In this document: positions 30,842-39,344 of the stretch, piece after piece | Layout of the letters: the number at the start of each line of letters is the position of its first letter | How positions within the stretch are numbered: position 1 is the stretch's first letter | Assembly (NCBI RefSeq): GCF_003019035.1 | Contig: NZ_CP027447.1 | Length of the DNA stretch: 64,000 nt | Direction: 5' to 3' (one strand) | DNA from: Escherichia coli | Lineage (GTDB): Bacteria > Pseudomonadota > Gammaproteobacteria > Enterobacterales > Enterobacteriaceae | Position numbers and translations under genes: made by a program | Notes under the pieces: generated by a model | The model's input: the letters and a program-made list of their open reading frames with translations, nothing else | What the model was told of the DNA's origin: nothing | Databases searched by the model: none

Positions 30842-31970
30842 ACTGAACGATCTTCTGACCACCCGTGAGCTACAACGCTGGCGATTAATTCTTGGCGAAG
30901 CGGCAGAAACGACGCTTTGTGGGCTGGATGACAACGCCCGGCAGATAGACCACGCGCTGGAGTGGCTGTACGGGCGCGATCCTGAACGGCTCCAGCGTGG
31001 TGAACGCTCTGGTGGATTAGGTGGCTCAAATCTCACCACCCCTGAGTGGATCAACAGTATTCACACGCTGTTTCCGCAACAGGTGATTGAGCGACTGGAA
31101 AGCGATGCCGTACTGCGCTACGGCATTGAAGATGTGGTGACGAATCTCGACGTGCTGGAACGTATGCAGCCTTCTGAAAGCCTGCTACGCGCCGTTTTGC
31201 ACACCAAACATCTGATGAATCCCGAAGTACTGGCTGCCGCCCGCCAGATAGTGCGCCAGGTTGTTGAAGAAATTATGGCTCGACTGGCAAAGGAAGTTCG
31301 TCAGGCTTTTTCTGGTGTCCGCGATCGCCGTCGCCGCTCATTTATTCCACTGGCGCGAAACTTTGATTTCAAAAGTACTCTGCGCGCCAACCTGCAACAC
31401 TGGCACCCGCAACACGGCAAGTTGTATATCGAATCCCCCCGCTTTAACAGCCGCATTAAACGCCAAAGCGAACAATGGCAACTGGTCTTACTGGTTGATC
31501 AAAGCGGATCAATGGTGGACTCGGTGATCCACTCAGCGGTGATGGCGGCCTGTTTATGGCAGTTACCCGGTATTCGTACCCATCTGGTGGCGTTTGACAC
31601 CAGCGTGGTTGATCTCACGGCAGACGTTGCCGATCCGGTAGAGTTATTAATGAAAGTGCAATTAGGCGGCGGAACCAATATCGCCAGTGCCATGGAATAT
31701 GGTCGGCAACTTATTGAACAACCAGCGAAAAGCGTCATTATCCTCGTGAGTGATTTTTATGAAGGGGGTTCATCATCATTGCTGACGCATCAGGTGAAAA
31801 AGTGTGTCCAGAGCGGCATCAAAGTGCTGGGGCTGGCAGCGCTCGACAGCACCGCAACGCCTTGCTATGACCGCGATATGGCCCAGGCGCTGGTTAATGT
31901 TGGCGCACAAATAGCCGCAATGACACCGGGTGAACTGGCTACCTGGCTTGCGGAGAATTTGCAGTCATGA
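30834..31970 (+). CDS. yehP: von Willebrand factor A (VWA) domain protein with MIDAS motif, 378 aa
   Basis: ATGTCTGA overlap with yehM stop; MIDAS-like LVLLVDQSGSM (DxSxS); ORF-track 5' extension rejected. Confidence 0.9.
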   Translation: MSELNDLLTTRELQRWRLILGEAAETTLCGLDDNARQIDHALEWLYGRDPERLQRGERSGGLGGSNLTTPEWINSIHTLFPQQVIERLESDAVLRYGIEDVVTNLDVLERMQPSESLLRAVLHTKHLMNPEVLAAARQIVRQVVEEIMARLAKEVRQAFSGVRDRRRRSFIPLARNFDFKSTLRANLQHWHPQHGKLYIESPRFNSRIKRQSEQWQLVLLVDQSGSMVDSVIHSAVMAACLWQLPGIRTHLVAFDTSVVDLTADVADPVELLMKVQLGGGTNIASAMEYGRQLIEQPAKSVIILVSDFYEGGSSSLLTHQVKKCVQSGIKVLGLAALDSTATPCYDRDMAQALVNVGAQIAAMTPGELATWLAENLQS

Positions 31971-33967
31971 ATTCACTACGTCCGGAATTATTAGAACTGA
32001 CGCCGCAGGCCCTGACGGCGTTAAGCAATGCCGGTTTTGTTAAGCGCAGTCTTAAGGAACTGGAAAATGGCAACGTCCCGGAAATCAGCCATGAGAACGG
32101 CGCTTTAATCGCCACCTTCAGTGACGGTGTCCGTACCCAACTGGCGAGCGGTCAGGCACTGAAAGAGGCCCGGTGCAGTTGCGGGGCCAGCGGCATGTGC
32201 CGCCATCGCGTGATGCTGGTGTTAAGTTATCAGCGACTTTGCGCCACCACTCAGCCCACGGAAAAAGAAGAAGAGTGGCAGCCTGCAATCTGGCTGGAAG
32301 AACTGGCTACCCTGCCCGATGCCACCCGCAAACGTGCACAGGCGCTGGTCGCTAAAGGCATCACCATTGAGTTATTCTGTGCGCCGGGCGAAATTCCCTC
32401 AGCCCGCTTACCGATGAGTGACGTGCGTTTTTATTCCCGCAGCAGCATTCGCTTCGCCCGCTGTGATTGCATTGAAGGAACGCTGTGTGAACATGTCGTA
32501 CTGGCGGTACAGGCCTTTGTCCAGGCCAAAACTCAGCAGGCGGAATTTACTCATTTAATCTGGCAGATGCGCAGCGAACACGTCACATCATCTGACGATC
32601 CGTTTGCCAGCGAAGAAGGCAACGCGTGTCGTCAATATGTTCAGCAATTAAGCCAGGCATTATGGCTTGGCGGCATCAGCCAGCCGCTTATTCACTACGA
32701 GGCCGCTTTCAGCCGCGCGCAGCAAGCGGCAGAGGCCTGCAACTGGCGCTGGGTGAGTGAGTCACTACGACAGCTACGGGCAAGCGTTGATGCCTTCCAC
32801 GCCCGCGCCAGTCACTATCATGCCGGAGAATGCTTACGTCAGCTTGCGGTATTAAACAGTCGATTAAATTGCGCACAAGAGATGGCGCGCCGCGACAGTA
32901 TCAGTGAAGTTCCTCCCATGCCGTGGCGAACGGTGGTTGGCGCAGGCATTGCTGGCGAAGCAAAGCTTGATCATTTGCGGCTGGTGTCGCTAGGTATGCG
33001 TTGCTGGCAGGATATTGAGCAGTATGGTTTACGCATCTGGTTTACCGATCCCGACACCGGCAGTATTTTGCACCTTTCGCGCAGTTGGCCGCGAAGTGAA
33101 CAGGAAAACTCACCGGCAGCGACGCGTCGGCTGTTGAGTTTTCAGGCAGGCGCGCTGGCGGGTGGACAAATTGTTTCACAGGCAGCGCGTCGCAGTGCCG
33201 AAGGCGAACTGCTATTCGCGACCCGCAACCGCTTAAGTAGCGTTGTGCCGCTGTCGCCAGACGCCTGGAAAATGCTGAGTGCGCCGCTGCGCCAGCCAGG
33301 CATTGTGGCTTTACGTGAATATTTACGCCAGCGTCCCCCCGCCTGCATACGACCACTCAACCAGGTCGATAACTTATTTATTCTGCCAGTCGCTGAGTGT
33401 ATTTCACTCGGTTGGGATAGCAGCCGCCAGACACTGGATGCGCAGGTAATCAGCGGCGAAGGTGAAGATAACGTGCTGACATTATCCCTACCAGCCTCTG
33501 CCTGTTCGCCCTTTGCTGTTGAACGCATGGCGGCGCTTTTGCAACAAACAGACGACCCCGTGAGTCTGGTTTCTGGCTTTGTCAGCTTTGTAGAGGGGCA
33601 ATTGACACTGGAACCACGGGTGATGATGACAAAAACCCGCGCCTGGGCGCTGGACGCAGAAACTGCGCCTGTAGCACCGCTACCTTCTGCCAGCGTTTTG
33701 CCTGTGCCGTCTACCGCTCATCAGTTGCTGATGCGCTGCCAGGCGTTACTTATTCAACTGCTCCATAACGGCTGGCGCTATCAGGAACAGAGTGCTATTG
33801 GTCAGGCAGAGTTGCTGGCGAATGACCTCACCGCGGTGGGTTTTTATCGGCTGGCACATGTGTTGGGACAATTTCGTAATACAGAAAGCGAGGCACGGGT
33901 AGAAGCAATGAATAACGGTGTTTTGCTTTGCGAACAATTATTCCCCATGCTTCAGCAACAAGGATGA
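31967..33967 (+). CDS. yehQ: SWIM zinc-finger protein, 666 aa
   Basis: ATGA overlap with yehP stop; two CxCxnCxH SWIM-type motifs (ARCSCGASGMCRHRV and ARCDCIEGTLCEHVV) in the N-terminal third. Confidence 0.88.
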   Translation: MNSLRPELLELTPQALTALSNAGFVKRSLKELENGNVPEISHENGALIATFSDGVRTQLASGQALKEARCSCGASGMCRHRVMLVLSYQRLCATTQPTEKEEEWQPAIWLEELATLPDATRKRAQALVAKGITIELFCAPGEIPSARLPMSDVRFYSRSSIRFARCDCIEGTLCEHVVLAVQAFVQAKTQQAEFTHLIWQMRSEHVTSSDDPFASEEGNACRQYVQQLSQALWLGGISQPLIHYEAAFSRAQQAAEACNWRWVSESLRQLRASVDAFHARASHYHAGECLRQLAVLNSRLNCAQEMARRDSISEVPPMPWRTVVGAGIAGEAKLDHLRLVSLGMRCWQDIEQYGLRIWFTDPDTGSILHLSRSWPRSEQENSPAATRRLLSFQAGALAGGQIVSQAARRSAEGELLFATRNRLSSVVPLSPDAWKMLSAPLRQPGIVALREYLRQRPPACIRPLNQVDNLFILPVAECISLGWDSSRQTLDAQVISGEGEDNVLTLSLPASACSPFAVERMAALLQQTDDPVSLVSGFVSFVEGQLTLEPRVMMTKTRAWALDAETAPVAPLPSASVLPVPSTAHQLLMRCQALLIQLLHNGWRYQEQSAIGQAELLANDLTAVGFYRLAHVLGQFRNTESEARVEAMNNGVLLCEQLFPMLQQQG

Positions 33968-34091
33968 AATAGTGCTTTTTATTAAGAGTTCTACTCCTGT
34001 TCCGGACTGCTCACGCCACAGTATTAGGCATATCCTATATAGCCCCTGGTGAGAGTCACCAGTTCCTTGATTAAATAAAATGGAGTTTTAC

Positions 34092-34553
34092 ATGAAGGCT
34101 TTCAATAAGCTGTTTTCCCTTGTTGTTGCATCTGTTCTGGTTTTCTCTCTTGCTGGCTGCGGTGACAAAGAAGAATCAAAGAAATTCAGCGCCAATCTGA
34201 ACGGCACTGAAATTGCCATTACCTATGTCTACAAAGGTGACAAGGTGCTTAAGCAATCTTCTGAAACCAAAATTCAATTTGCCTCCATTGGTGCAACCAC
34301 CAAAGAAGATGCCGCCAGGACACTTGAGCCGTTAAGCGCCAAATACAAAAACATCGCGGGTGTTGAAGAAAAATTAACCTATACCGATACCTACGCGCAG
34401 GAAAACGTGACTATTGATATGGAAAAAGTGGATTTTAAAGCCCTGCAGGGTATTTCAGGAATCAACGTTTCTGCTGAAGATGCCAAAAAAGGTATCACTA
34501 TGGCGCAAATGGAACTGGTGATGAAAGCCGCTGGTTTTAAAGAAGTGAAATAA
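34092..34553 (+). CDS. yehR: Lipoprotein of unknown function (DUF1307-type), 153 aa
   Basis: GGAG RBS 6 nt before ATG 34092; lipobox LAGC after signal peptide (MKAFNKLFSLVVASVLVFSLAGCGDKE). Confidence 0.88.
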   Translation: MKAFNKLFSLVVASVLVFSLAGCGDKEESKKFSANLNGTEIAITYVYKGDKVLKQSSETKIQFASIGATTKEDAARTLEPLSAKYKNIAGVEEKLTYTDTYAQENVTIDMEKVDFKALQGISGINVSAEDAKKGITMAQMELVMKAAGFKEVK

Positions 34554-34559
34554 TCTGTC

Positions 34560-34584
34560 GGCGGCCATGTTTCGCATGGCCGCC
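34560..34584. terminator. Bidirectional hairpin between convergent yehR and yehS
   Basis: Perfect 10-bp stem GGCGGCCATG / CATGGCCGCC with 5-nt loop TTTCG. Confidence 0.6.
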
Positions 34585-34593
34585 ATACCCGTC

Positions 34594-35064
34594 TTAGCTT
34601 TTCTTCACATGCTGGCGCGCTGCCAGTCCACGCAGAAAATAACGTAAAAATTGATCGCCGCATTCGCGGAAGTTTTTATGATCCGGTGCACGCATCATCG
34701 CCGTAATTTCCGGCATCGAAACGCGGAACTGCTGTTCGGTGAGGATCGCCAGAATGTCATCGGTTTTAAGCGAAAACGCGATGCGTAATTTTTTCAGCAC
34801 GATGTTGTTATTAATGCGACGTTCCGGCTCCAGTGCCGGAGCAGACTCATCCTTGCCGCGTTTTTCATAAATCAGGCCATTGAGGAATGAAGACAAAACA
34901 ATGTCCGGACAACGCTGAAAACCCTCTTCGTCTTCTTTACGTAGCCAGACGGCGATCTGTTCCGCGGTGGCTTCGACATTACCCAGCGCCAGAATACGCA
35001 CCAGGTCATTATTATTGGCTTTCAAAATGTAGCGCACGCTGCGCAGAATATCGTTACTTAGCAT
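34594..35064 (-). CDS. yehS: Cytoplasmic protein of unknown function (DUF1456-type), 156 aa
   Basis: Start at ATG 35062-35064 (MLSNDILRSVRYILK..) rather than ORF-track extension; recalled as YehS. Confidence 0.85.
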   Translation of the reverse strand: MLSNDILRSVRYILKANNNDLVRILALGNVEATAEQIAVWLRKEDEEGFQRCPDIVLSSFLNGLIYEKRGKDESAPALEPERRINNNIVLKKLRIAFSLKTDDILAILTEQQFRVSMPEITAMMRAPDHKNFRECGDQFLRYFLRGLAARQHVKKS

Positions 35065-35110
35065 GAGGCCTTCAGGTGTTGATGAGGCAAAAAGCCATTT
35101 TAGCAGTCTT

Positions 35111-35830
35111 TTACAGGCCAATCGCCTCTTTTAAGCTTTTCAGATAACGGCGGCTGACCGGCACGGTTAAGCCATTACGCAAAATCAACTCGGCCTGACC
35201 GTTATCTTCCAGACGAATCTCCTGTAAATGCGCGAGGTTAACCAGATACTGACGATGGCAGCGCAGTAGTGGTGTACGACTCTCCAGGGTACGTAATGTC
35301 AGTTCGGTAAAGCCCTCTTTCCCTTCGTGACTGGTAACGTAGACACCGCTCATCCGACTGCTGACAAATGCCACATCTTTCATTTGCAGCAAATAAATCC
35401 GACTATGCCCCGTACAAGGGATAAATTTCAGCGCCTGTTGATTTTCCGGTAACAACGAAACATCCTGCTTGCTGCGCTCCAGACGCAATCGCGCCAGCGT
35501 TTTCTCCAGTCGCGCTTCATCAATTGGCTTCAGCAGATAATCAAAGGCATGTTCTTCAAAGGCTTTAATGGCGTATTCATCAAACGCGGTGAGAAAAACA
35601 ATATACGGACGATGTTCCGGGTCGAGCATCCCCACCATTTCCAGACCACTGATGCGCGGCATCTGGATATCGAGGAACAGCACATCCGGGCGCAGTTTAT
35701 GCACCGCGCCGATCCCTTCCACGGCGTTTGAACACTCACCAACGATTTCAATATCGCTCTGCTCCTGCAAAAATACGCGCAGGTTCTCCCGTGCTAACGG
35801 TTCATCATCGACAATTAAGACTTTAATCAT
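35111..35830 (-). CDS. btsR: LytTR-family response regulator (pyruvate-responsive two-component system), 239 aa
   Basis: Receiver domain [17 protein letters not shown].. plus C-terminal LytTR DNA-binding domain; 4-nt overlap with btsS stop. Confidence 0.92.
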
Positions 35831-37512
35831 GCCTCGTCCCTCCATGGTAGTCGTAACGTTATTCGGGTGTAACTATCAGGCTCACAGGCGACGCTTATCC
35901 CATAGTCATCGCCAAACCGTTCACGTAAACGCTTATCCACCAGATTCATCCCCAGCCCACTGGCATTGGTTACCGGTTGATACAAACCGGCATTGTCTTC
36001 GATCTCCAGCATCAAATGTTGCCCCTCACGTCGGGCGCTGATTGCCACTCGCCCTGTATCCAGCAGTTGTGATGTCCCATGTTTAATGGCGTTTTCCACT
36101 ATCGGTTGCAGGGTAAACGCGGGCAATTGCTGCTGGGATAATTCTTGCGGAATAGCAATGTTGACCTGCAACCGCGACTGGAAGCGCGCCTTTTCAATTT
36201 GCAGATAAGCGTTCACATGTTCAATTTCGTCGGCGAGAGTAACAAACTCCGAAGGCCGCTTTAAGTTTTTGCGGAAAAAAGTGGAAAGATACTGCACCAG
36301 CTGGCTGGCCTGTTCGCTGTCGCGGCGGATCACCGCTTTAATGGTGTTAAGCGCATTAAACAAAAAATGGGGATTCACCTGGGCGTGAAGCAGTTTGATC
36401 TCTGACTGGGTGAGCATCGCTTTTTGCCGCTCATATTGCCCGGCGAGGATCTGCGCCGAAAGCAGTTGCGCAATCCCCTCACCCAGCGTGCGATTGATTG
36501 AACTGAATAAACGGTTTTTGGCTTCATACAATTTGATGGTACCCATCACTCGCTGATTTTCACCACGCAACGGAATGACCAGCGTCGACCCCAGTTTGCA
36601 TTGCGGATGCAAAGAGCAACGGTAAGGCACTTCGTTGCCATCAGCGTAGACCACTTCACCGGTTTCAATCGCTTTTAAGGTGTAAGTCGAAGAAATCGGT
36701 TTGCCGGGTAAATGGTGGTCGTCACCAATTCCGGTAAAGGCCAGCAATTTCTCTCGATCGGTAATCGCGACTGCACCAATATCCAGCTCCTGATACAGCA
36801 CCTGTGCCACTTTCATGCTGTTCACTTCGTTAAACCCCTGACGCAAAATGCCTTCCGTCGAGGCCGCCACTTTCAGCGCAGTGGCAGAAAAAGCTGAAGT
36901 GTATTTTTCAAACATCGCGCGTTTATCGAGCAATATACGCATAAACAGTGCCGCGCCGACGGTATTGGTGACCATCATTGGCGCAGCAATATTACTCACC
37001 AGACGCACCGCATCTTCATAAGGTCGGGCGATCGCCAGGATGATCAACATTTGCACCATTTCAGCGACGAACGTAACGGCACCGGCGGTAATGGGGTTAA
37101 AGACTTTATCAGTGCGCCCGCGACGGATCAGGATGCTGTGTACCAGGCCGCCGAGCAATCCTTCAACGATGGTCGAGATCATGCAACTTAGCGCGGTCAT
37201 GCCCCCCATCGAATATCGATGTAACCCGCCGGTCAGACCAACCAGCCCACCGACGACCGGACCGCCGAGTAAGCCGCCCATTACCGCGCCTATCGCACGG
37301 GTATTGGCAATAGAATCGTCAATGTGCAACCCAAACCAGGTGCCCATGATGCAGAAGATGGAAAAGACGATGTAGCAGAGAAATTTATGCGGCAGACGAA
37401 CCGTGACCTGCATTAACGGTATGAATAATGGCGTTTTACTCATTAACCACGCAATGACTAAAAAAACGCACATCTGCTGAAGCAGCAGCAACACCAGATT
37501 AAAATCGTACAT
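35827..37512 (-). CDS. btsS: LytS-type sensor histidine kinase (5TM Lyt-GAF-HisKA/HATPase), 561 aa
   Basis: N-terminal polytopic membrane domain, C-terminal kinase motifs (..[16 protein letters not shown].., ..[18 protein letters not shown]..); start ATG 37510-37512. Confidence 0.92.
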
Positions 37513-37733
37513 ACCCGCAAACCACACTTCCCTTTAAAACGCGTAACATACATTGCCTGCGTTTAACTTTCTTTGAACTCTTGCAGAAAAATGAGAATTC
37601 GTGAGTATGATCACTCAAAATCGCCTGGCAAAAATAAAATCACCCTATAGATGCACAAAAAACGGGCAAAACTACCTGGTTCGCAAAACTGCGTCTAAAG
37701 TTAAACCGGGACCTCGCGAGCAAGGGTGAGACG

Positions 37734-38465
37734 ATGGCGCTTTACACAATTGGTGAAGTGGCGTTGCTTTGTGATATTAACCCTGTCACGTTACGCGCGT
37801 GGCAGAGGCGTTACGGATTGCTGAAACCGCAACGGACAGACGGCGGTCATCGGCTGTTCAACGATGCCGATATTGACCGGATCCGCGAGATCAAACGCTG
37901 GATCGACAACGGCGTGCAGGTCAGCAAAGTTAAAATGCTGCTCAGTAATGAAAATGTTGATGTGCAGAACGGCTGGCGCGATCAGCAAGAAACATTACTG
38001 ACTTACCTGCAAAGCGGCAATCTGCATAGCCTGCGAACGTGGATCAAAGAGCGCGGTCAGGATTACCCCGCCCAGACACTCACCACGCACCTGTTTATTC
38101 CACTGCGCCGACGGCTTCAGTGCCAACAACCGACTCTCCAGGCGCTGCTGGCGATCCTCGACGGCGTACTGATCAACTACATCGCCATCTGTCTGGCTTC
38201 GGCGCGCAAAAAACAGGGTAAAGATGCACTGGTGGTTGGCTGGAATATTCAGGATACCACTCGTCTGTGGCTGGAGGGCTGGATTGCCAGTCAACAAGGA
38301 TGGCGCATTGATGTCCTCGCCCACTCGCTCAATCAACTACGCCCTGAACTGTTCGAAGGTCGTACATTGCTGGTGTGGTGCGGTGATAATCGAACCTCCG
38401 CCCAACAGCAGCAACTCACCAGTTGGCAGGAACAAGGCCATGATATTTTCCCACTCGGCATTTAA
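37734..38465 (+). CDS. mlrA: MerR-family transcriptional regulator (curli/csgD activator), 243 aa
   Basis: N-terminal MerR HTH YTIGEVALLCDINPVTLRAWQRRYGLL; recalled as MlrA/YehV. Confidence 0.92.
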   Translation: MALYTIGEVALLCDINPVTLRAWQRRYGLLKPQRTDGGHRLFNDADIDRIREIKRWIDNGVQVSKVKMLLSNENVDVQNGWRDQQETLLTYLQSGNLHSLRTWIKERGQDYPAQTLTTHLFIPLRRRLQCQQPTLQALLAILDGVLINYIAICLASARKKQGKDALVVGWNIQDTTRLWLEGWIASQQGWRIDVLAHSLNQLRPELFEGRTLLVWCGDNRTSAQQQQLTSWQEQGHDIFPLGI

Positions 38466-38524: not shown

Positions 38525-38632
38525 ATGCGCATAGCTAAAATTGGGGTCATCGCCCTGTTCCTGTTTATGGCGTTAGGCGGAATTGGTGGCGTCATGCTCG
38601 CAGGTTATACCTTTATTTTGCGTGCTGGCTGA
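38525..38632 (+). CDS. yohO: Small membrane protein, 35 aa
   Basis: AAGGAG RBS; translates [35 protein letters not shown] (single TM helix); 3' end overlaps the 3' end of yehW by 20 nt. Confidence 0.75.
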
Positions 38633-39344
38633 ACGCCTGCACCAGCCTTTCAAACAGGCGGTCTGCGATGATCGCCGCCAGTGCCACCAGTAATGCCCCC
38701 TGGATCACATACGCGGTATTAAATCCGCTAAGCCCGATGATGATCGGCGTACCCAGCGTGCTGGCCCCTACCGTTGAGGCGATCGTCGCCGTACCAATGT
38801 TGATAATCACCGAAGTTCGCACGCCCGCCAGAATCACCGGAGCCGCCAGCGGTAGCTCGACCTTACGCAGTCGCTGACCACGACTCATTCCCATACCTTT
38901 CGCAACTTCTGTCACGCTGGCATCAATCGCTCCCAGCCCGGCAAGTGTCGCCTGCAGGACGGGTAGCACACCGTAAAGGATCAAGGCGATAATCGCCGGT
39001 TGCAGGCCAAAGCCGATCACCGGAACGGCAATCGCCAGCACTGCAACGGGCGGAAAAGTCTGCCCAACGGCAGCAATAGTTTCCACCAGTGGGCGAAATT
39101 CCGCGCCCCACGGGCGAGTAACAATAATTCCTGCACCAGTGCCAATGATCACCGCAAACAAACTCGAAATTCCCACCAGCCAGAAATGAGCCAGTGCCAG
39201 AGCTGCAAAACTTTCTTGCTGATAAACGGGGCGTGGCAGTTGTGGGAACAAGGCAGCAAACAGCGGCTGGCTGTAAGGCAGCCAGAAAATCAGTGCCACA
39301 AACAAAGCAATGAGCCAGAACAGCGGATCGCGCAACATCTTCAT
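38613..39344 (-). CDS. yehW: Osmoprotectant ABC transporter permease, 243 aa
   Basis: Polytopic permease; operon yehZYXW on minus strand. Confidence 0.93.

Follow-up and report, generated by a model that had tools for sequence, protein, structure and literature searches.

The closest described relative of the locus considered here is the BtsS/BtsR (YehU/YehT) system of Escherichia coli K-12. According to the literature, the K-12 BtsS orthologue binds pyruvate and btsT (yjiY) is induced; one study gives Arg72, Arg99, Cys110 and Ser113 as the pyruvate-binding residues of BtsS (PMC10653868). A 4-bp overlap between the two genes has also been reported in Salmonella (PMC3875573). Other parts of the locus can be set beside three further kinds of element. 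These are the internal promoters that lie in the 3' end of the gene upstream and give nested transcription units in closely packed co-directional gene pairs, the bidirectional intrinsic terminators that separate convergent genes of E. coli, in which a GC hairpin is flanked by an A-tract and a U-tract, and the λ-repressor-like (Cro/C1, XRE) HTH domains.

The locus spans positions 34092-37512 of a 64,000-nucleotide stretch of E. coli contig NZ_CP027447.1, which is called the window below. It consists of yehR on the plus strand and yehS, btsR and btsS on the minus strand, and it is part of the E. coli core, being found in 5425 of 5426 complete genomes. The gene calls have exactly the boundaries of the RefSeq CDSs in SCU-301, a strain with 100% identity, and the locus diverges from K-12 by ~2% at the nucleotide level. 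This is an ordinary, near-universal stretch of the E. coli chromosome, and it is already known: it is annotated throughout the genomes of the species, and its sensor is well characterized. The gene identities and orientations given in the initial annotation agree with the RefSeq CDSs and with the Pfam domains.

BtsS carries, in order, 5TMR_LYT (the 5TM-5TMR_LYT membrane input), GAF, His_kinase (PF06580) and HATPase_c domains, with Pfam E-values from 7e-59 to 3e-6. R72, R99, C110 and S113 are all kept, and the phospho-accepting H382 lies within NPHFLFN in the translation. BtsR matches Response_reg (E = 3e-26) and LytTR (E = 7e-26) in Pfam, and its D54 lies within LFLDIQMP. The domain order and the retained pyruvate-site residues bear out the identification of the pair as a LytS/LytTR pyruvate sensor. 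Nothing of substance separates these genes from their K-12 counterparts, with which they share domain order, the ATGA overlap, the four pyruvate residues and the divergent neighbor mlrA. In RefSeq, the BtsS protein accession of the 100%-identical strain is that of a K-12-like strain. The 4-nt overlap described earlier is indeed present (Table 1), and 30 of the 34 loci in which the genes adjoin show the same overlap. Translation of btsS and btsR would be coupled through this ATGA, and their products constitute the characterized pyruvate-sensing two-component system.

The account that probably holds for the locus as a whole is that btsS and btsR are coupled, that yehS is a separate unit with its own promoter and a 3' end at a hairpin, and that YehS is not a dedicated accessory of BtsS/BtsR. 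The finding is an ordinary one, because a conserved promoter belongs to yehS itself and neither neighbor is tied to the sensor by the evidence presented here. The locus matters little for discovery, and both the promoter and the 3' end of yehS already appear in published high-throughput tables.

Table 1. Positions of the genes and regulatory features of the locus within the window
Feature	Position	Strand	Description
yehR	34092-34553	+	DUF1307 (YehR-family) lipoprotein, 153 aa; lipobox LAG|C, Cys23
Convergent spacer between yehR and yehS stop codons	34554-34593	.	40 nt
GC-rich hairpin GGCGGCCATG-TTTCG-CATGGCCGCC	34560-34584	.	Candidate yehS mRNA 3'-end determinant, possible weak terminator
yehS	34594-35064	-	156-aa cytoplasmic protein; two DUF1456 repeats, each a four-helix unit
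btsR-yehS spacer	35065-35110	-	46 nt; yehS promoter and GAAGG ribosome-binding site, without terminator-like structure
yehS promoter, extended -10 box TGCTAAAAT	35097-35105	-	Reg-Seq, RACE and conservation; inferred TSS near 35094
btsR (yehT)	35111-35830	-	LytTR-type response regulator, 239 aa, receiver Asp54; Pfam, RefSeq name
ATGA overlap, btsS stop/btsR start	35827-35830	-	tcat on the plus strand; translational coupling
btsS (yehU)	35827-37512	-	LytS-type histidine kinase, high-affinity pyruvate receptor, 561 aa; Pfam

As initially described, yehS is co-directional with btsR and begins 46 nt downstream of it. All of the transcript evidence available for the locus comes from K-12, and of the two spacers that flank yehS, only the one between btsR and yehS is identical in K-12 and the window. 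The extended -10 box TGCTAAAAT in this spacer fits a transcription start site mapped by RACE in K-12 (placed through NC_000913.3 coordinates). Footprints of RNA polymerase and the -10 element occur at the box in every one of the nine K-12 conditions covered by Reg-Seq, a plasmid reporter assay. Among 34 Enterobacteriaceae btsR-yehS spacers, 32 retain the form TG(n)TAnnnT, compared with ~2.3 of 33 expected by shuffling. The box is located 29-35 nt ahead of the yehS ATG and takes the TGn form at 28 of the 34 loci. In the window it starts 5 nt past the btsR stop codon, and the -35 region, which is poor, falls within btsR. A scan for sigma-70 consensus promoters finds none in the spacer because it demands a -35 match; recognition of the box depends entirely on the Reg-Seq data and cross-species comparison.

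Together, the extended -10 box and the poor -35 region would start transcription ~30 nt before the yehS ATG, within the first 15 nt past the btsR stop, and this promoter is expected to behave in the window strain as it does in K-12. It resembles other internal promoters at the 3' ends of upstream genes in that its -35 region lies inside btsR, an arrangement that would give independent yehS expression plus read-through. It differs from them in having no known regulator, the nearest candidate being a single activator-like site that Reg-Seq labels at -4 to +5 of the footprint and to which no factor is assigned. The spacer shows no significant structure (fold z = -0.87) and nothing that resembles a terminator, so read-through from btsSR is possible and may add to yehS transcription.

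The proposal that yehS is co-transcribed with btsSR therefore stands in part: no terminator intervenes, but yehS is preceded by its own conserved promoter, with a start site and footprints in K-12. Independent transcription, which the initial annotation had named as evidence against its proposal, is at least half established because RACE, Reg-Seq and conservation all indicate this promoter. The three genes btsS, btsR and yehS have the shared direction, short gap and absence of an intervening terminator that mark a single operon. However, such an operon should also lack an independent promoter for its distal gene and yield a transcript that spans the junction. The SMRT-Cappable-seq supplements list no yehS, yehT or yehR entry, and no transcript spanning btsR and yehS was found in them. 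The operon picture is thus corrected to one in which yehS would be its own transcription unit, close behind btsR, with an extended -10 promoter that is conserved family-wide.

YehS contains two PF07308 (DUF1456) stretches (E = 1.6e-51), and its halves are recognized singly with E-values of 4e-26 and 1e-24. A confident structure model predicts two four-helix repeats that bear some resemblance to λ repressor, and YehS is probably a soluble protein built from these repeats. Sequence and profile searches of the PDB with YehS return no match. A Foldseek search of the PDB gives no significant full-length match, and calmodulin-like two-lobe matches are found at a TM of ~0.2. A high-confidence fold without an assigned function poses a modest question. 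Because the family is widespread without neighboring LytS/LytTR genes, because many YehS relatives carry basic, lysine-rich tails, and because a DEAD-box helicase fusion occurs in one family member, YehS is more likely to have a general role, possibly in association with nucleic acids, than to serve BtsS/BtsR as a dedicated accessory. A second fusion in the family involves GNAT; each of the two fusions is a single cluster representative.

Another possibility is that YehS regulates targets unrelated to BtsSR by binding DNA or RNA, with two λ-repressor-like HTH units per chain arranged as a pseudo-dimer. This is rather unlikely. At the sequence level YehS is not linked to any HTH family, and the Foldseek comparison is not significant. 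Cro/C1 and XRE domains differ from YehS further in that the latter has two repeats in one chain, a longer turn of 6 residues between helices 2 and 3, and a third helix that is acidic and variable. Conserved positions are found instead in helices 1 and 4 and in a loop with Cys, His and Asp; conserved residues include the basic R8, R11, K92 and R125 as well as Cys52, Cys135 and His129. A search for experimental binding data found none. A broader possibility is that DUF1456 proteins form an unrecognized nucleic-acid-binding class, in which two λ-repressor-like four-helix units are often joined to a histone-H1-like lysine-rich tail. In the Enterobacteriaceae, such a protein would have come to be encoded behind btsSR with a constitutive promoter for itself, and it might couple pyruvate or nutrient signaling to a process at the DNA or RNA level. 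This idea is speculative and seems improbable.

At its other end, yehS converges on yehR, and the stop codons of the two genes are 40 nt apart, in keeping with the original description. The perfect 10-bp stem reported in this spacer is also there: its arms (34560-34569 and 34575-34584) are complementary at 10 of 10 positions and enclose a 5-nt loop. The hairpin has a predicted dG of -22.5 kcal/mol (z = -4 to -5), and none of 200 shuffled sequences folds equally well. In the minus-strand RNA it can extend to 13 pairs with one bulge. The window and K-12 alleles of the hairpin differ by one compensatory pair, C-G to T-A. Convergent yehS/yehR pairs with a hairpin in a spacer of ~46 nt are found in Citrobacter, Pseudescherichia and Phytobacter, and the GC-rich hairpins of other genera occupy the same spot with unrelated sequences. 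Rfam lists no RNA family within 33900-37800 at E <= 1, and the hairpin therefore matches no known structured RNA. A chance palindrome or REP element is ruled out by the compensatory substitution, the presence of hairpins across genera and the mapped 3' ends.

These 3' ends come from two independent K-12 datasets, which place the end of the yehS mRNA at 2211688 and at 2211684-87, or 3-8 nt past the stem; they were obtained with a spacer allele that differs from that of the window. The spacer is dimorphic in E. coli, with ~4000 genomes of the window type and 1422 of the K-12 type. In the K-12 allele the hairpin is preceded by A6 and followed by T6. On the yehR side, the stem of the window allele is followed by ATACCCGTCTT, which has no T run, and the plus-strand sequence after the stem, AUACCCGU, has no immediate U-rich tract. 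The minus-strand tail, GACAGAUUAUUU, is marginal only when the bulged extension of the stem is allowed; the U-rich tract on the yehS side (UUAUUU) starts 2-6 nt past the stem.

The initial annotation regarded the hairpin as a bidirectional terminator. If it were a true intrinsic (Rho-independent) terminator for both genes, the perfect GC-rich stem, its retention in the convergent pairs of three other genera and the classic A6/T6 layout of K-12, whose minus strand is flagged by a terminator scan, would all be expected, as would yehS 3' ends just past the stem. In the window, however, the stable GC-rich stem-loop is not followed directly by a U-rich tract on both strands, and the same scan reports the hairpin on neither strand. 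K-12 also has a significant Rho-dependent region at 2211443(-) (score 4.6, p = 8e-13), 245 nt downstream on the yehS strand, and there must therefore be appreciable read-through past the hairpin. A bidirectional intrinsic terminator is thus unlikely. The yehS half of the claim fits the K-12 3' ends, even though Rho-dependent termination still follows. The yehR half is unproven, because the window allele lacks a T run on that side and neither K-12 dataset lists a yehR 3' end.

It appears instead that yehS transcripts have their 3' end at the GC-rich hairpin of the spacer that yehS and yehR have in common, and that for yehS the hairpin acts as a weak intrinsic terminator, as a stop for 3' exonucleases, or as both. 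Rho-dependent termination inside the antisense of yehR would back it up, and the 3' end in the window strain is expected to form in the same way. For yehR, the hairpin would be a canonical terminator solely in the K-12 allele with its T6 tail. The locus is thus similar to the bidirectional intrinsic terminators of E. coli in having a GC hairpin centered in a convergent spacer, K-12 A and T tracts and a mapped yehS 3' end, and unlike them in the yehR-side tail of the window allele and in the Rho-dependent region downstream. Whether a GC hairpin between convergent genes merits the label 'bidirectional terminator' depends on the allele, and in about three-quarters of E. coli genomes, this one included, the yehR side is without a T run.

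The remaining proposal was that the accessory genes are uncharacterized and could modulate the sensor. The first part is accurate, in that the literature that names yehS calls it so. The second part relies on adjacency, and this was examined in 80 yehS-homologue loci gathered using a 9-sequence alignment, with LytS/LytTR neighbors scored within 7 kb. The genes btsS, btsR and yehS occur together in 34 of these loci, all in Enterobacteriaceae, and no BtsS/BtsR match lies within 7 kb in the other 46. An accessory protein should be linked to its system wherever the family occurs, and this is not the pattern observed. For example, Siccibacter keeps mlrA-yehS without btsSR, and the yehS neighbors in Erwiniaceae are metR and metE. 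The range of hypotheses for the two y-genes is narrowed accordingly, since adjacency to btsSR is lineage-specific.

Even so, one could suppose that btsS, btsR and yehS form one operon and that YehS, perhaps with YehR acting across the envelope, tunes the BtsS/BtsR pyruvate response. The co-directional yehS follows btsR at 45-55 nt in 33 of the 34 linked loci (125 nt in the remaining one), and such close spacing, kept throughout a family, may in itself point to a functional connection. The two genes are not separated by a terminator, and the defined hairpin at the yehS 3' end means that a btsSR-yehS transcript would be well bounded. Against this stand the conserved promoter that belongs to yehS, the loci described above that lack btsSR within 7 kb, and the inconstancy of yehR, which is missing beside yehS in 15 of the 34 linked loci and is frameshifted in one E. 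coli strain. The direct-repeat motif of BtsR, which we take to be ACCRCTYA-N13-ACCRCTYA, has no match in the window with fewer than three mismatches. Its seven three-mismatch matches compare with 3.7 ± 2.1 expected and therefore provide no evidence that BtsR controls yehS or yehR. In the papers on BtsS/BtsR signaling that were examined, the pathway is described without any mention of YehS. An operon with accessory functions is accordingly quite improbable, and modulation of the sensor by either gene does not follow from an adjacency that is confined to Enterobacteriaceae for yehS and inconstant for yehR. The preferred account, with yehS as a separate unit, is retained.

YehR itself has the features of its lipoprotein family, namely a signal peptide with a lipobox cysteine (LAG-C23, read from the translation) and a DUF1307 domain (PF06998, Pfam E = 5e-45). 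Its presence beside yehS is patchy across genera, and it is best viewed as a sporadically present lipoprotein of solved structure with no role yet assigned. That structure, PDB 2JOE, is a structural-genomics NMR structure of E. coli YehR, and residues 24-153 of the protein encoded in the window match its chain (E = 2e-77).

The segment 33900-37750, which encloses the four genes lying between the start codons of yehR and btsS (34092-37512), was found by megablast in 5,425 of 5,426 complete E. coli genomes, almost always as a single chromosomal copy. Strain SCU-301 is 100% identical to the window over this segment, and its RefSeq CDS coordinates convert exactly to the four gene intervals in the table. 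K-12 has the same gene order: yehLMPQ and yehR, then yehS-btsR-btsS on the opposite strand, followed by the divergent mlrA, yohO and yehWXY-osmF. The genes are annotated, the sensor is characterised, and the promoter and 3' end of yehS are present in public tables. Three points are added here: conservation of the yehS promoter extends across the family, whether the terminator label applies varies with the allele, and the link of yehS and yehR to btsSR is positional and lineage-specific. The observations of the initial annotation are confirmed, and its interpretation is partly supported.

Genes and transcription signals at the yehR-btsS locus of the window
Feature	Coordinates	Strand	Basis or remark
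yehR	34092-34553	+	ORF listing and sequence reading
Inverted repeat	34560-34569 / 34575-34584		10/10 complementary, 5-nt loop
yehS	34594-35064	-	ORF listing and sequence reading
yehS extended -10 box, TGCTAAAAT	35105-35097	-	K-12 footprint carried over via identical spacer
btsR	35111-35830	-	ORF listing and sequence reading
btsS	35827-37512	-	ORF listing and sequence reading

Two neighbouring genes deserve brief mention. In the window, yehQ (31967-33967, +) is an intact 666-aa SWIM zinc-finger ORF; in a K-12-like strain it is a RefSeq pseudogene with an internal stop, and the MG1655 CDS is shorter. The 35-aa yohO ORF, placed by K-12 homology at about 38525-38632 (+), runs about 20 nt into the 3' end of yehW (38613-39344, -), which converges on it, and K-12 Term-seq locates the yohO 3' end within yehW, in antisense.

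The two-component system itself is complete. BtsS carries 5TMR_LYT, GAF, His_kinase and HATPase_c domains and BtsR carries Response_reg and LytTR (Pfam). R72, R99, C110 and S113, which PMC10653868 gives as the pyruvate site of BtsS, are all present together with the His box, as is D54 of BtsR. The proposed 4-nt overlap was read directly from the sequence as ATGA at 35827-35830, which combines the btsS stop and the btsR start; an identical 4-bp overlap is reported in Salmonella (PMC3875573). YehR is a DUF1307 protein (Pfam) whose lipobox is LAG-C23 and whose mature part corresponds to the solved structure 2JOE. In E. coli UC4224 (L002 3016-3475; 83.5% identity over the locus), yehR is frameshifted, and yehS, btsR and btsS are intact.

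As the initial annotation stated, yehS is co-directional with btsR and directly downstream of it. The spacer between them is 46 nt long and contains no terminator-like structure (fold z = -0.87; terminator scan), so read-through from btsR into yehS is possible. However, yehS has its own promoter. Reg-Seq supplements list separate RACE start sites for yehU (btsS), yehT (btsR) and yehS, and, for yehS, a footprint assigned to RNAP or the -10 element that spans +5 to +12/17 relative to the reference position in 9/9 growth conditions listed (PMC7567609). With the reference position 15 bp upstream of the RACE start site, the footprint maps on NC_000913.3 to TGCTAAAAT, an extended -10 box that starts 5 nt past the btsR stop codon. 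Because the spacer is identical in the window and K-12, the box can be carried over, and transcription is inferred to start near 35094, about 30 nt upstream of the ATG. A generic promoter scan of the window made no call at this box because its -35 element is poor.

Conservation of the box was examined in 80 loci encoding YehS relatives, one genome per species, in 34 of which btsR precedes yehS. These 34 spacers diverge widely in sequence, but 32 retain TG(n)TAnnnT, the sole conserved island. Where the box has the TGn form (28 loci), its distance from the ATG is fixed at 29-35 nt, and a GAAGG ribosome-binding site comes after it. As estimated by shuffling, about 2.3 of the 33 distinct spacers would carry such a box by chance, although the loci are related and no formal probability is attached to this figure. 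The datasets examined contain no transcript spanning the btsR-yehS junction, and the SMRT-Cappable-seq supplements have no entry for yehS, yehT or yehR. Thus, yehS is an independent transcription unit, to which read-through from btsSR may add. In Citrobacter sp. R56 (L010 6873-7000), the spacer is 125 nt long versus the usual 46 or so, and a palindromic element, GTTGCAGC...GCTGCAAC, is inserted after the -10-like box.

At its 3' end, yehS is met by yehR across a 40-nt spacer (34554-34593) that contains the perfect 10-bp stem described initially. RNA from either strand folds at -22.5 kcal/mol (z -4 to -5), and 0 of 200 shuffled sequences were as stable. The further claim that this hairpin is a bidirectional terminator is supported on the yehS side only. 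In K-12, the primary yehS 3' end lies at the hairpin in two independent datasets: at 2211688(-) by Term-seq (bioRxiv 10.1101/2020.07.18.207399, supplementary file 1) and at 2211684-2211687(-), with the same predicted stem, by TRS (PMC10687069). Neither lists a 3' end for yehR. DirectRNA-seq of K-12 (NC_000913.3) with and without bicyclomycin places a Rho-termination region at 2211443(-), with a Rho score of 4.6 and p 8e-13 (bioRxiv 10.1101/2020.07.18.207399). This corresponds to about 34311 in the window, inside yehR and downstream of the hairpin; therefore, a good share of polymerases get past the hairpin, and yehS transcription invades yehR in antisense. Our reading is that the hairpin determines the yehS 3' end as a weak intrinsic terminator, an exonuclease barrier or both, with Rho as back-up. 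A second terminator-like hairpin with a T-rich tail, shared with K-12, lies between the yehS hairpin and the Rho coordinate (34185-34211, -), antisense within yehR. It may be a chance occurrence, since the total of scan sites is no higher than in shuffled sequences.

Two types of this spacer occur in E. coli, with almost no intermediates seen. The window type, which is also that of E. albertii, is the commoner, at about 4,000 genomes versus 1,422 with the K-12 type. The K-12 type differs by one compensatory stem pair (C-G to T-A), by its loop of 7 nt and by its flanks, with a T6 run towards yehR, where the tail after the stem reads AATTTTTT versus ATACCCGTCTT in the window. A terminator scan flagged the minus strand of the K-12 allele and reported no site on either strand at the window hairpin. 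On our reading, the hairpin of this strain does not serve yehR as a canonical terminator. In other genera where yehS and yehR converge, the spacer measures about 46 nt and also holds a GC hairpin, unrelated in sequence; this and the compensatory pair speak for a terminator.

The initial annotation also suggested that yehS and yehR could modulate the sensor. Adjacency is the only argument for such a putative accessory role, and it is lineage-bound. When window proteins were compared by tblastn with the 80 YehS-relative loci, the btsS-btsR-yehS arrangement appeared in 34, all Enterobacteriaceae in the narrow sense, and the other 46 had no BtsS or BtsR match within 7 kb. The latter include Cedecea, Mixta, Hafnia, Erwinia, Pantoea, Providencia, Budvicia and Rahnella, as well as Stenotrophomonas, Crenobacter, Deefgea, a Colwellia relative and a Nitrospirota MAG. 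Siccibacter retains mlrA-yehS without btsSR. Among the 34 btsSR-yehS loci, yehR adjoins yehS in 15, is more distant in 4 and was undetected in 15. The BtsR repeat motif has no match with fewer than 3 mismatches anywhere in the window. YehS is absent from the BtsS/BtsR papers examined, and publications that do name the gene term it uncharacterised.

YehS consists of two DUF1456 repeats (Pfam), and a library-wide HMMER search with it returned 904 cluster representatives at E <= 0.001. An AlphaFold2 model built from a 26-sequence alignment is very confident (pLDDT 96.8, pTM 0.90) and shows two repeats of four helices each. Foldseek gave no significant match; per-domain matches were to CI and Aca1 (TM 0.6 on target). 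Sequence and profile searches connected YehS with no HTH family and with no solved structure. According to the same alignment, it is helix 1 (NDxLRxxRY), helix 4 and a Cys/His/Asp loop that carry the conserved residues, and not the would-be recognition helix. The protein is basic (pI 9.2). C-terminal tails of at least 35 residues, mostly lysine-rich with pI of at least 9.7, occur in 34 of about 116 full-length representatives, and fusions to a DEAD-box helicase and to a GNAT acetyltransferase are each seen in one representative. Taken together, these features would make a nucleic-acid-associated role a reasonable guess, albeit a low-confidence one. Long tails are found in roughly a quarter of DUF1456 representatives (P0229, P0182, P0139, P0161, P0163 and P0239 among others), and some carry KPAA-like repeats.

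Outside the btsSR setting, yehS has another conserved and distinct neighbourhood. In Erwinia and Pantoea, yehS is preceded by the gene of a MetR-like regulator, transcribed divergently from metE. In loci L050-L054, L056-L060, L063, L065, L066, L070, L074 and L079 of the cross-species set, mainly from Erwinia, Pantoea and their relatives, a MetR-like LysR gene in the same orientation precedes the yehS homologue at a distance of about 50-220 nt, and metE was detected in 12 of them, always divergent from the MetR-like gene.
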